Below, piece by piece: positions 35,523-37,616 of a DNA stretch of 64,000 nt. Position 1 is the stretch's first letter; every line of letters starts with the position of its first letter. This DNA is from Chloroflexota bacterium (GTDB lineage: Bacteria > Chloroflexota > Dehalococcoidia > JACPEP01), in assembly GCA_016183425.1 (NCBI GenBank), contig JACPEP010000002.1, positions 937 through 64,936 of the forward strand, read 5' to 3'. A model generated the notes under the pieces. It was not told the origin of the DNA. It did no database searches and saw nothing but the letters and a program-made list of their open reading frames with translations. The position numbers and the translations under genes are program-made.

Positions 35523-35606
35523 TAGCACCGTTCCCAGGAAGCTAGTTTGGCGGTAGTGTATCAGTTTCAACTTGACGGGGTCAATAGAACGTGCTAACCT
35601 TAAAGC

Positions 35607-35885
35607 ATGGATAAACGCTCAAGCAAGAAAAAGGAACACGACTTCGCTGTTACCGCCTTTAGGGTCGTCCAGGAGGCGACAGGCGAAGAGTCTGAGGCTC
35701 AGACCACGACTCAAGAGACTCTCAAGGAACCCAGCCCCGAAGAGCGCCATGCGGCGGCTGTCATGCTGGGACGGATTGGTGGGACGAAGGGGGGCAAAGC
35801 ACGGGCTGCTAAGCTAACGCCGGAAGAACGTAGGGAGATAGCTAAGAAAGCGGCAATGGTGCGCTGGCAGAAAAATCCGCCATAA
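35607..35885 (+). CDS. IS passenger: small basic protein with KGG-like motif
   Basis: LGRIGGTKGGKARAAKLTPEERREIAKKAA; upstream TTGACG-N17-TAACCT at 35572-35600. Confidence 0.75.
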   Translation: MDKRSSKKKEHDFAVTAFRVVQEATGEESEAQTTTQETLKEPSPEERHAAAVMLGRIGGTKGGKARAAKLTPEERREIAKKAAMVRWQKNPP

Positions 35886-35906
35886 GCCTAATCTAAGGCA
35901 GAAAAC

Positions 35907-35935
35907 CATATGGGGGGCGAAATGCCCCCCATATG
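35907..35935 (+). terminator. 12-bp stem hairpin after the first passenger
   Basis: CATATGGGGGGC-GAAAT-GCCCCCCATATG. Confidence 0.65.
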
Positions 35936-35937
35936 TA

Positions 35938-35967
35938 TTGACAAATCCTATTAGAGCATCTTACAAT
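35938..35967 (+). promoter_or_regulatory. Sigma70-type promoter for the second passenger and probably the tRNA
   Basis: TTGACA-N18-TACAAT. Confidence 0.6.
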
Positions 35968-36043
35968 GGGCAGTGGTGGCAATATACTCTATGGCCGTGC
36001 CCCTTCGGGGCAGTCATTGGTATAATCAATTGAGGAGGTATTT

Positions 36044-36466
36044 ATGAGGGACATTCGAAGGGATATACAAGAGCGTTTGGAGGATGTTGAGGCAGAAAAG
36101 GCGCAACTCCAACGCCGTCTCTCGAATCTTGCCGATAACGAGGCGATATTGAGAAAACTATTGGAGCAAGAAGAACTACGTTGGAAGGCCCAGCAGCCAG
36201 CCTTAGCGGGGTTGGATGTTGTACCCAAAGCGCAAGGGCGAAGCCCACTAGGGCGCTTTATCCTAGACACGTTGGGGGATGGAAGCGAATGGACTCTAGA
36301 GCAATTGGTGACCGCAGCCATCGCCAAGGGGATGTTTTTTAACGGCAAGTCGCCGAAGAGAGCAATCCATTTCAGTCTCGTTGGAATGAAACAGAATGGC
36401 CTCGTGCGGTGGGTAAGGTCGGGAGTTTGGAAACTAGAGAGTAACGAAATGAAAATGAATAGCTAG
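36044..36466 (+). CDS. IS passenger: N-terminal coiled coil plus putative winged-HTH protein
   Basis: Heptad N-terminus; ILDTLG..WTLEQLV..AIHFSL..GLVRWV pattern; RBS GAGGAGG. Confidence 0.7.
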   Translation: MRDIRRDIQERLEDVEAEKAQLQRRLSNLADNEAILRKLLEQEELRWKAQQPALAGLDVVPKAQGRSPLGRFILDTLGDGSEWTLEQLVTAAIAKGMFFNGKSPKRAIHFSLVGMKQNGLVRWVRSGVWKLESNEMKMNS

Positions 36467-36523
36467 AACAAGAAAAGAGCGGAGCGGTTAGCCTGCCAGC
36501 GTGTTCCGCTCCGCCACTCTCAG

Positions 36524-36596
36524 GCCCCCGTAGCTCAGACGGAAGAGCGGTCGACTACTAATCGACTGGGCGTGGGTTCAAGCCCCACCGGGGGCA
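36524..36596 (+). tRNA. Class I tRNA with anticodon ACT and tRNA-Arg-like body; CCA not encoded (TCA follows)
   Basis: Acceptor GCCCCCG/CGGGGGC, D stem GCTC/GAGC, anticodon stem GTCGA/TCGAC with loop CT-ACT-AA, 5-nt variable loop, T stem GTGGG/CCCAC with loop TTCAAGC; U8, A14, G15-C48, G18G19, U33, A58 all canonical. Confidence 0.92.
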
Positions 36597-36685
36597 TCAA
36601 CTATCCTCGCTCATATTATACCATCTGTCAAGAGGGTATGCCATCGCTCACCCAGAAAAAACGGACAAACTAACCACAAAAACCC

Positions 36686-36714
36686 TTGACAATGCTTAAT
36701 CGATACGGTATATT
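36686..36714 (+). promoter_or_regulatory. Sigma70-type promoter for the transposase
   Basis: TTGACA-N17-TATATT. Confidence 0.7.
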
Positions 36715-36743
36715 ATAGTCAGTTTGATAGAGGGATAGGAACC

Positions 36744-37592
36744 GTGAATAAGCTAAGTACCAATCGCCAAGCCCAAATTGTCAAAGCTCTTGTTGAGGGA
36801 AATTCCCTTCGTAGCACTGCCCGTATAGTGGGTGTGTCCATCAACACAGTGGTCAAACTCCTGGAAGACCTGGGTTCTGCCTGTTTAGACTATCAGGACG
36901 AAGTTATGCATGACCTTCCCTGCAAACGTCTCCAATGCGATGAAATTTGGAGCTTCGTCTACTCTAAAGCCAAGAACGTTCCTGAGGAACACAAGGGTGA
37001 GTTTGGCTATGGAGATGTATGGACGTGGACGGCCCTTGATGCTGAAACAAAGCTAGTTCCATGCTGGCGGGTAGGCAATAGAGACGGCCAGGAAGCATAC
37101 TACTTCATACAAGACCTGGCTGTTAGGCTTGCGAATCGAGTCCAGCTTACTACCGATGGCTATAAAGCCTACCTAGAGGCTGTAGAAGGGGCTTTTGGTC
37201 GAGATATAGACTATGCTATGTTAATCAAGCTCTATGGCACTGAATCAAAAGAAGAACAGCGCCGCTATAGTCCCGCAGAGTGTTTAGGTACAGAGGTTAA
37301 GGTCATTCAGGGCAAGCCCGATCCTAAGCATATTTCCACTAGTTACTCGGAGCGCCAGAATCTCACAATGCGTATGTCCATGCGGCGCTTCACTAGGCTT
37401 ACCAACGGATTCTCTAAGAAGCTCCAAAACCATATGTACGCCATTGCCCTTTATTTCATGCACTACAATTTCGCTAGGCCCCACAAGAGCCTGAACAATC
37501 CCTATCCTCGCACTCCGGCAATGGCGACTGGTCTAACTGACCACATCTGGACTACAGAAGAATTGCTTTCGCTACTGGACAAATCAAACTGA
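36744..37592 (+). CDS. IS1-family-like DDE transposase (single ORF)
   Basis: N-terminal HTH (SLRSTARIVGVSINTV), CDEIWSF, LTTDG, ERQNLTMR, HYNF.R.H; stop lies inside the right TIR. Confidence 0.9.
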   Translation: MNKLSTNRQAQIVKALVEGNSLRSTARIVGVSINTVVKLLEDLGSACLDYQDEVMHDLPCKRLQCDEIWSFVYSKAKNVPEEHKGEFGYGDVWTWTALDAETKLVPCWRVGNRDGQEAYYFIQDLAVRLANRVQLTTDGYKAYLEAVEGAFGRDIDYAMLIKLYGTESKEEQRRYSPAECLGTEVKVIQGKPDPKHISTSYSERQNLTMRMSMRRFTRLTNGFSKKLQNHMYAIALYFMHYNFARPHKSLNNPYPRTPAMATGLTDHIWTTEELLSLLDKSN

Positions 37593-37616
37593 TACACTAC
37601 CAGTTTGGCTCTTACC

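Follow-up and report, generated by a model that had tools for sequence, protein, structure and literature searches.

Insertion sequences (IS) are usually regarded as carrying a transposase and, at most, some protein passengers. Can such an element also carry a tRNA gene and, if so, what would that tRNA do? The question is raised by a 2050-bp element located at positions 35552-37601 of a 64-kb stretch of DNA (from contig JACPEP010000002.1 of assembly GCA_016183425.1), called here the window, whose host genome is Dehalococcoidia/Chloroflexota-like. The element is an intact transporter IS of a single-ORF (open reading frame) branch of the wider IS1 family and is apparently still active. Between its second protein gene (ORF2) and its transposase gene lies a structurally sound tRNA. 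Its anticodon is off-code, and it is coupled to one particular uncharacterised family of proteins, that of ORF2. The anatomy of the element and the linkage of ORF2 to the tRNA, taken jointly, can be stated with near certainty. The best explanation of the whole is a transporter IS with a regulated tRNA module, probably missense-decoding, to which we give slightly less than an even chance. The features of the element, with their strands, are as follows (TSD, target-site duplication; TIR, terminal inverted repeat).

35544..35551, no strand: left TSD, AGTTTGGC, identical to 37602-37609
35552..35567, plus strand: left TIR, GGTAGTGTATCAGTTT, 16/16 pair
35607..35885, plus strand: ORF1, 92 aa (ORF call)
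35907..35935, no strand: palindrome with a perfect 12-bp stem, CATATGGGGGGC / GCCCCCCATATG, 3' of ORF1, terminator-like in both directions
35938..35967, plus strand: sigma-70-like promoter TTGACA-18-TACAAT upstream of ORF2 (11/12 positions match)
36044..36466, plus strand: ORF2, 140 aa (ORF call, alignment, AlphaFold model)
36479..36514, plus strand: hairpin with a 9-bp stem, GCGGAGCGG ... CCGCTCCGC, without U tract (minimum free energy and centroid folds)
36524..36596, plus strand: tRNA gene, 73 nt (ARAGORN, Rfam RF00005)
36612..36640, plus strand: motif CATATTATACCATCTGTCAAGAGGGTATG 3' of the tRNA, kept in related modules
36686..36714, plus strand: sigma-70-like promoter TTGACA-17-TATATT of the transposase gene, TTGACAATGCTTAA, conserved in relatives
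36744..37592, plus strand: transposase, 282 aa, GTG start, uninterrupted ORF
37586..37601, minus strand: right TIR, overlapping the transposase stop codon
37602..37609, no strand: right TSD, AGTTTGGC (direct reading)

A transporter IS of the wider IS1 family

The left TIR and the exact reverse complement that forms the right one agree at all 16 positions, and the GGTAGTGTATCAGTTT 16-mer has just two matches in the window when up to three mismatches are allowed (chance expectation 0.18). The 8-bp duplication AGTTTGGC abuts both ends. ORF1, ORF2, the tRNA and the transposase gene are all co-oriented, and the G+C content is about 0.45-0.55 in the element versus 0.55-0.61 in the flanks. The element lies in intergenic space, with a bactofilin gene on one side and the promoter of an enoyl-CoA hydratase gene on the other, and disrupts no gene. 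The original prediction for this locus, made from the sequence alone, had described a complete IS1-like element with perfect 16-bp TIRs, an 8-bp TSD and an uninterrupted transposase, and each of these features is found in its place.

IS1 is the top-ranked family for the transposase. The protein matches the NCBIfam model of the IS1 family (NF033558) with E=3.2e-18 and 66.4 bits, below the cut-off of 100, and the Pfam domains DDE_Tnp_IS1 and HTH_Tnp_IS1 with 24.0 bits (cut-off 24.1) and 20 bits (cut-off 24.9), respectively; IS6, the next family mentioned, follows at 2e-5. Scores below the cut-offs, with IS1 clearly the best family, indicate a divergent branch of the IS1 family. Candidate catalytic residues are D66 (CDEIW), D138 (TTDG) and E203 (ERQNLTMR), and a putative helix-turn-helix (HTH) occupies the N-terminal region. 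The transposase would mobilise the entire 2050-bp unit via DDE chemistry, generating 8-bp duplications. More than 8000 homologues exist, many of them in Chloroflexota/Dehalococcoidia metagenome-assembled genomes (MAGs) and several bearing the NCBI or JGI name 'IS1 family transposase', an annotation also given to plasmid homologues in cultured Mesorhizobium, Acidiphilium and Hoeflea. The plasmid copies of the Acidiphilium and Mesorhizobium isolates carry no tRNA.

In the IS1 family, terminal inverted repeats start with GGT and the target duplication measures 8-9 bp. The present element shares with this family a DDE transposase that matches the IS1 models best, ends starting with GGT and an 8-bp duplication. 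However, classical IS1 elements contain insA and insB' joined by a -1 frameshift within about 770 bp, whereas here there is one ORF of 282 aa in 2050 bp; these two characters place the element outside the classical IS1 group and inside the wider family only. It also differs from the IS1 family in having a conserved additional gene, ORF1, and a tRNA passenger. Relatives were sampled as 80 loci from species-representative genomes (loci and contigs other than the window are designated by L and a number). At least 15 of them measure 2.1-3.5 kb and have GGTAGTG... ends flanked by an exact 8-bp duplication. This branch therefore routinely holds 1-2.5 kb beyond the transposase, which corresponds to a 'transporter IS' in Chandler's terms. 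A transporter IS (tIS; Siguier, Gagnevin & Chandler 2009, cited in PMC7986276) is an IS with passenger genes. The element has one transposase and one pair of ends with passengers between them, and is a tIS rather than a compound transposon.

ORF1 codes for a small basic protein with the C-terminal motif GGxKGGKARAxKLTPEERxEIAxKAA. Homologues were detected by tblastn in 67 of the 80 loci, mostly adjoining the left end, so that ORF1 is a core gene of the IS group and not cargo. This fact modifies the original prediction, in which two protein genes and a full tRNA were taken as co-oriented cargo: all three are present on the same strand, but ORF1 is no passenger, and the tRNA is not an ordinary one, since its anticodon (ACU) mismatches its body. 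ORF1 has no Pfam or NCBIfam match, and an ORF1 homologue on a plasmid of M. loti is annotated 'histone H1'; PHROG, PADLOC and PDB sequence searches with ORF1 and ORF2 were uninformative. The cargo of the relatives is variable and includes Gp49/HTH toxin-antitoxin genes (L213), a weakly DUF5343-like protein (L006) and a P63C-domain protein (L212), and RES/Xre toxin-antitoxin genes adjoin the transposase on the Acidiphilium plasmid. The transposase promoter sequence TTGACAATGCTTAA is also located upstream of the transposase in L006 and L027.

As to the age of the insertion, independent assemblies were searched for identical copies of three proteins: the transposase, the bactofilin and the hydratase. 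Run SRR12113422 has the element as a separate 2110-nt Logan contig (L001), identical to the window, each side of which bears exactly 30 nt of flank, made up of 22 nt and the 8-nt duplication. On the left, the flanking contigs L082 and L085 reach as far as the final base of the duplication; on the right, L226 and L227 start at its first base. In two other runs (L083, L084) the contig continues across the left junction. Logan contigs are, we assume, built with k=31. Branching of 31-mers at the duplication is what would be expected if the flanks continue in two ways, into the element or across an empty site, a pattern unlike that of a multi-copy repeat, whose contig would end at the IS ends. Judging from these contig breaks, and not from a direct view of the empty site (predicted as ...CCCAGGAAGCT-AGTTTGGC-TCTTACCTTGACA...), filled and empty sites very probably still occur side by side in the population that was sampled, and such a polymorphism points to recent activity. 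An insertion of probably recent date had already been proposed, and the break points in assemblies of the same population fit the coexistence of empty and filled sites.

The tRNA, its anticodon and its relatives

The tRNA is the sole one in the window. It scores 67.4 bits against Rfam RF00005 (gathering score 29, E=8e-14), ARAGORN concurs, and the cloverleaf is canonical (7/5), with U8, A14, G18G19, U33 and GTTC. The anticodon loop CUACUAA yields the anticodon ACU. The variable loop consists of 5 nt (TGGGC), without a long arm, and CCA is not encoded in the gene. ARAGORN labels the molecule Ser on the anticodon alone. Bacterial seryl-tRNA synthetase (SerRS) requires a long variable arm, and AGY codons are usually read by the class II (long-variable-arm) tRNA-Ser(GCU). 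With its 5-nt variable region, the window tRNA lacks the long arm that defines tRNA-Ser and is not to be filed there. The identity set of arginyl-tRNA synthetase (ArgRS) is present: A20, C35, U36 and the discriminator A73. In E. coli, ArgRS identity lies in A20, C35 and U36 or G36, and bacterial tRNA-Arg has A or G as residue 73. The absence of the long arm together with A20, C35, U36 and A73 suggests charging by ArgRS rather than by SerRS.

The window tRNA shares A20, C35, A73 and a short variable loop with tRNA-Arg(ACG) and tRNA-Arg(UCU), and position 36 alone distinguishes its anticodon loop from that of tRNA-Arg(ACG), CUACGAA. It departs from bacterial tRNA-Arg in that ACU pairs with the serine codon AGU, while AGA would be read only if A34 were converted to inosine. 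To our knowledge, A34 is essentially confined in bacteria to tRNA-Arg(ACG), and the ACU anticodon lies outside the standard bacterial tRNA sets. In the host, AGT is the second-rarest serine codon (60 of 682 serine codons; 4.8 per 1000 codons), versus 9.7 per 1000 in the element, a figure that corresponds to 5 codons only. There is no promoter-like site in the interval between ORF2 and the tRNA, nor a terminator between the tRNA and the transposase promoter, and the promoter at 35938 probably drives the tRNA as well as ORF2.

A tRNA or tRNA-like gene is found in about 6% of roughly 88 IS1-like transposase loci. In L006, from a groundwater Chloroflexota MAG (transposase 72% identical, element of 2412 bp, TSD CGGGAACA), a tRNA with the identical loop CUACUAA lies just upstream of the transposase, its stems differing by paired changes. 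L228 contains the closest ORF2 homologue (65% identical) and has the same left end and gene order, at about 70% DNA identity: ORF1, ORF2, tRNA(GCU), tRNA(ACC) and transposase. Its GCU tRNA has a short variable arm, and its tRNA(ACC) is the orthologue of the window tRNA, with ACC replacing ACU. A short-variable-arm tRNA(GCU) is also located upstream of the transposase in L018, on the opposite strand. Other members are irregular. Immediately upstream of the transposase promoter, L025 has a tRNA-like gene with anticodon UGG and G33, and L033 one with the loop CUCCUAA and no D arm. In L056, two tandem tRNA-like genes precede this promoter, an 8-bp acceptor stem, a long variable arm and the anticodon UGC occurring among them; L056a and the second tRNA of L243 have apparent 8-bp acceptor stems. 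That related elements might never carry tRNAs, a possibility raised with the original prediction, is contradicted by the homologous tRNA at the same position in L228, the ACU tRNA in L006 and the irregular tRNAs elsewhere.

When seven class I (short-variable-arm) tRNAs were aligned, 96.6% of the stem cells were paired, and 13 of the 21 pairs were altered on both sides. The covariation score was reached in none of 500 shuffles, and sliding the partner columns reduced pairing to 30-48%. A20 is invariant in all seven. These tRNAs are 70-81% alike, closer to each other than to any canonical tRNA in the loci, their best canonical match being tRNA-Arg(ACG) (68%). The long-arm members (L238, L239, L243, L056b) are homologous to one another, also with paired changes. 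While the body is kept, the anticodon varies: ACU, ACC and AGC occur in one lineage and UGG and UGC in the other. Within the ORF2 modules, ACU, ACC, GCU and AGC are found on short-arm bodies and UGG on long-arm ones. The tRNA fold is under purifying selection and the anticodon is not fixed; module anticodons mismatch their bodies and differ between close relatives.

A partial precedent is provided by irregular tRNAs and allo-tRNAs from Acidobacteria and from soil metagenomes, which adjoin 'transposon-related protein' and toxin-antitoxin genes, and for which Mukai et al. (2017, PMC5389517) proposed an association with transposable elements, leaving the vehicle undefined. The tRNAs described here share with allo-tRNAs an anticodon mismatched to the identity elements of the body (which makes them potential missense or nonsense suppressors), the tandem occurrence of some members and, in L056 and L243, tRNA-like genes with 8-bp acceptor stems. 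However, allo-tRNAs have a 12-bp acceptor branch, 8/4 or 9/3, whereas the window tRNA is 7/5 and, hence, not an allo-tRNA; and they are Ser, Ala or His-like, whereas the window tRNA appears Arg-like and its host belongs to Chloroflexota. Neither an IS1-like vehicle with defined ends nor a linked ORF2 family figures in Mukai et al. (2017); a genomic vehicle and a partner protein are now supplied for their 'irregular tRNAs', in a system testable with three short genes. In the literature searched, as distinct from the ISfinder and TnCentral catalogues, no account was found of a delimited IS with a tRNA among its internal cargo, and none of the ORF2 family or of its association with tRNAs. The statement that no described IS family transports a tRNA internally agrees with this literature, and has to be qualified by the irregular tRNAs found beside a 'transposon-related protein' (PMC5389517).

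Second irregular tRNA-like genes, with 8-bp acceptor stems and an encoded CCA, immediately follow or precede the main tRNA in L243 (1327-1407) and L056 (3712-3780); these tandem pairs call to mind the 'polycistrons of irregular tRNAs' described by Mukai et al. (PMC5389517). In L229, an inverted partial copy (2671-2697, plus strand) of the tRNA(AGC) gene (2754-2827, minus strand) covers the D arm through the anticodon loop, 15 nt being identical, and may be a scar of recombination or insertion.

Phage tRNAs and the long tRNA arrays of mobile elements also represent tRNAs travelling on mobile DNA. They are mostly canonical isoacceptors that fit codon demand, or counter tRNA-cleaving defences, whereas here one off-code tRNA is contained in a 2-kb IS and coupled to one protein gene. 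Among phage contigs with tRNA arrays, L219 holds a 74-nt tRNA(ACU) (14823-14896, minus strand), and tRNA-like pieces with the loop CUACUAA are located in L214 (324-355), L215 (2190-2221) and L217 (3545-3576); such tRNAs are thus not confined to IS elements. Seven IMG/VR viral contigs (L216, L218, L221-L225; in L216 at 7628-7658) share CACCACCTGA-CTACTAA-TCAGGTGG, followed by TTGTTGTTCAACTCATGC. The CACCACCTGA/TCAGGTGG pair forms an 8-bp hairpin whose loop is the same as the anticodon loop of the window tRNA, and ARAGORN calls no tRNA there. In another phage contig, L211, positions 4001-4269 comprise a C-terminal fragment of the IS1-like transposase (residues 222-279, 71% identical) and, 20 nt after it, a tRNA(ACU)-like gene with a mismatched anticodon stem, with no IS end between them. 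The body of this tRNA is close to E. coli argU.

The ORF2 family and its linkage to the tRNA

The model of ORF2 consists of a 47-residue N-terminal helix (residues 4-50, coiled coil) followed by a C-terminal winged helix (AlphaFold, mean predicted local distance difference test score of 80). In fold comparisons it comes closest to Z-alpha of ZBP1/DLM-1, the DpnI winged helix and Fur, each match being weak (E about 5e-3), and the protein is predicted to be a dimeric nucleic-acid-binding regulator. A profile search at E<=1e-3 recovered 584 clusters, nearly all of 130-160 aa. The invariant motifs of the family are MRDIRxD..ER (N-terminal) and HFSLVGM. ORF2 has no match in Pfam, NCBIfam, PHROG or PADLOC, and no relatives were found in viral contigs. 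In six of the eight contexts examined, a tRNA adjoins the ORF2-family gene:

Window: ACU; IS1-like transposase
L228: GCU and ACC; IS1-like transposase
L238: long-arm tRNA, UGG; contig ends before any transposase
L239-241: long-arm tRNA, UGG; IS1595-type transposase
L243/244: long-arm tRNA, UGG, plus a second irregular tRNA; no transposase seen
L229-234: AGC, on the opposite strand, upstream of ORF2; IS1595-type transposase
L027: no tRNA; IS1-like transposase
L235-237: no tRNA; transposase not identified

Genes of the tRNA type occur about once in every 50-100 kb, and chance falls far short of explaining the linkage. ORF2 and the tRNA constitute a linked two-gene module that recurs beside IS1-like and IS1595-like transposases and has apparently passed between these two IS families, which are related. 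The IS1595-family neighbours (L229-L234, L239-L241) contain the domains Zn_ribbon_IS1595 and DDE_Tnp_IS1595.

The surroundings of the tRNA are also partly conserved. The hairpin located 5' of the window tRNA is kept in the syntenic L228, where GGCGGAGCGG...CCGCTCCGCC occupies the same place. A motif 3' of the tRNAs (TAT.ATA.CATC.GTCAAG / TTTATCCATTTGTCAATACC) is common to the window (36612-36640), L228, L243, L238 and L239, and may serve as an operator, mark the boundary of the module or belong to an antisense promoter. A T-box-like leader with a specifier tracking the anticodon was sought in eight ORF2 5' leaders, and nothing convincing was found. Coiled-coil/winged-helix ORFs are located 5' of the tRNA-like genes in L025, L056 and L033 as well; their homology to ORF2 was undetectable by hhalign and with a hidden Markov model of 161 family members, so that the likeness is in architecture only. 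The small reverse ORF pairs of L025 and L056 had been considered as HicAB, an identity that was dropped for want of Pfam support.

Possible roles of the tRNA

According to the explanation that we favour, the tRNA would be co-transcribed with ORF2 from the promoter at 35938, the transcript would be cut by RNase P and 3' processing, and the CCA-adding enzyme would supply CCA. Charging would be carried out by a synthetase tolerant of the anticodon, ArgRS in the case of the window copy. The charged tRNA would then read the rare serine codon AGU, and AGC and AGA too if a host deaminase makes I34. The outcome would be a regulated, low-level Ser-to-Arg missense decoding, in which the winged-helix ORF2 would control the expression of the module. 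For the central step, the action of the tRNA in translation as a missense decoder, the sequence makes a tentative case that we place somewhat below even chances. There is precedent in E. coli, where amino acids are reported to be inserted at both sense and stop codons by several allo-tRNAs whose anticodons are mismatched (PMC5389517). That the element 'modifies host translation', as the original prediction had it, is plausible. If the tRNA decodes, mobile elements could spread codon-specific mistranslation or incipient codon reassignment between genomes, with a bearing on genetic code change and on the shielding of recoded organisms from horizontally acquired tRNAs.

Several points weigh against this explanation. 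Some irregular tRNAs are charged yet unused in E. coli translation, and others are inactive or toxic (PMC5389517). The assignment to arginine follows the identity rules of E. coli and Thermus, not those of Chloroflexota. Related modules have G35 anticodons (AGC, UGG), which ArgRS should reject; given these anticodons, one mechanism may not cover all module tRNAs. G33 in L025 and the missing D arm in L033 point away from ribosomal use for some members, and the presence of a tRNA in only about 6% of the relatives indicates that it is dispensable for transposition. The AGT codons of the transposase (residues 5, 176 and 200) correspond to serine residues conserved in L006, and the insertion of arginine at AGU would thus harm the element's own transposase. 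As regards the recent activity of the element, the k=31 interpretation of the contig breaks is an assumption about the assembler. A 'private code', in which the genes of the element would use AGU for arginine, was also considered and is ruled out by the same conserved serines.

A broader version of missense decoding would see in IS1/IS1595-type elements a programmable 'codon-reassignment cassette', that is, a winged-helix regulator plus a tRNA charged by an anticodon-blind or anticodon-tolerant synthetase. The anticodon would drift freely (ACU, ACC, AGC, GCU; UGG, UGC), imposing on the host a regulated missense decoding, here of Ser AGY as Arg. We consider this generalisation doubtful; if it were true, a selfish element would be editing the genetic code rather than the genome.

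The leading alternative, which we regard as possible but less likely, is that the tRNA is a structured RNA with no part in decoding. It would act either as a processing or insulation signal in the interval that separates ORF2 from the transposase gene or as a partner RNA for ORF2. In the first variant, RNase P and 3' processing at the cloverleaf would set the 3' end of the ORF2 mRNA, cutting read-through before the transposase gene. In the second, the tRNA would be an antitoxin-like or sensor RNA for ORF2, the anticodon loop serving as a contact site for protein or RNA. The layout is consistent with both: the tRNA always lies directly 3' of a protein gene and 5' of the transposase promoter, on the same strand and without a promoter of its own, and no terminator separates it from the transposase promoter. 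In other elements the same place is occupied by irregular tRNA-like RNAs: that of L025 has G33, that of L033 is without a D arm, and acceptor stems of 8 bp occur in L056 and L243. The fold class of ORF2 includes RNA and Z-form nucleic-acid binders, and a bare hairpin with the loop CUACUAA exists in seven phage contigs. Moreover, many such tRNAs 'are not used for translation' according to Mukai et al. (PMC5389517). However, the tRNAs of the window and L006 and both tRNAs of L228 keep all the features of a translating tRNA (7/5 stems, U8, A14, G18G19, U33, GTTC and a purine at position 37). A 7-nt anticodon loop that is conserved would be needless if the RNA were purely a processing signal, and the ORF2 leaders hold no complementarity or specifier tracking the anticodon. 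If the tRNA does not decode, the tRNA fold would have been put to a new use, in the regulation of IS genes.

The tRNA could also be a decoy or a resistant substitute that protects the element or its host against a tRNA-targeting enzyme (an anticodon nuclease or a modifying enzyme such as an A34 deaminase), in the manner of the phage-encoded tRNAs that counter tRNA-cleaving defences. The toxin-antitoxin genes often carried by the IS relatives (Gp49/HTH in L213, RES/Xre on the Acidiphilium plasmid) and those near allo-tRNAs (Mukai et al., PMC5389517) are compatible with this role, as are the single position (36) that separates the loop from that of tRNA-Arg(ACG), CUACGAA, and the same-loop tRNA-like sequences in phage tRNA arrays (L214, L215/217, L219). 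But the element itself contains no nuclease or toxin gene, PADLOC returned no convincing defence family (a marginal CARF match, E=0.007, concerns the transposase only), and anticodons that vary so widely between modules do not suggest a single target enzyme. We therefore give a decoy function a low probability.

It is very improbable that this is an ordinary supplementary tRNA, charged with serine, which supplies AGU decoding for the genes of the element. The element uses AGT about twice as often as the host does (on the 5 codons counted above), and the AGT codons of the transposase all stand at conserved serines. Nevertheless, the tRNA is devoid of the long variable arm that bacterial SerRS requires, the host tRNA-Ser(GCU) already reads AGU, the L228 homologue has ACC and other relatives AGC and UGG, and such A34 anticodons lie outside the standard bacterial sets.

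Least credible of all is a functionless hitch-hiking host gene or decaying pseudogene captured once, which would suit the many related IS copies without a tRNA and an anticodon found in no normal tRNA, as in a mutated copy, but is largely refuted by the L228 homologue, which occupies the same position, and by the covariation (compensatory changes in 13 of 21 stem pairs, 96.6% of cells paired), besides the ACU tRNA of L006, whose transposase is only 72% identical, and a linkage to the ORF2 family that spans two transposase families.

Some minor observations concern the search for further tRNAs and the insertion site. A metagenome scan with the anticodon arm and T loop gave, among the matches listed, no transposase and almost no bacterial tRNA calls. 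It included more than 100 JGI termite-gut contigs (L086-L205) with a tRNA-derived repeat, ...GGTCTAGTGGTCAGAGTCTCTGACTACTAATCATGAGGTCCCGGGTTCGATTCCCGG..., presumably a short interspersed element of the termite host and unrelated to the element. At the insertion site, the right IS end is located 7 nt upstream of a strong sigma-70-like promoter (37617-37644, TTGACA-16-TAAAAT with an extended TG). This promoter, that of the enoyl-CoA hydratase gene, was left intact by the insertion, but cut off from any upstream regulatory DNA.

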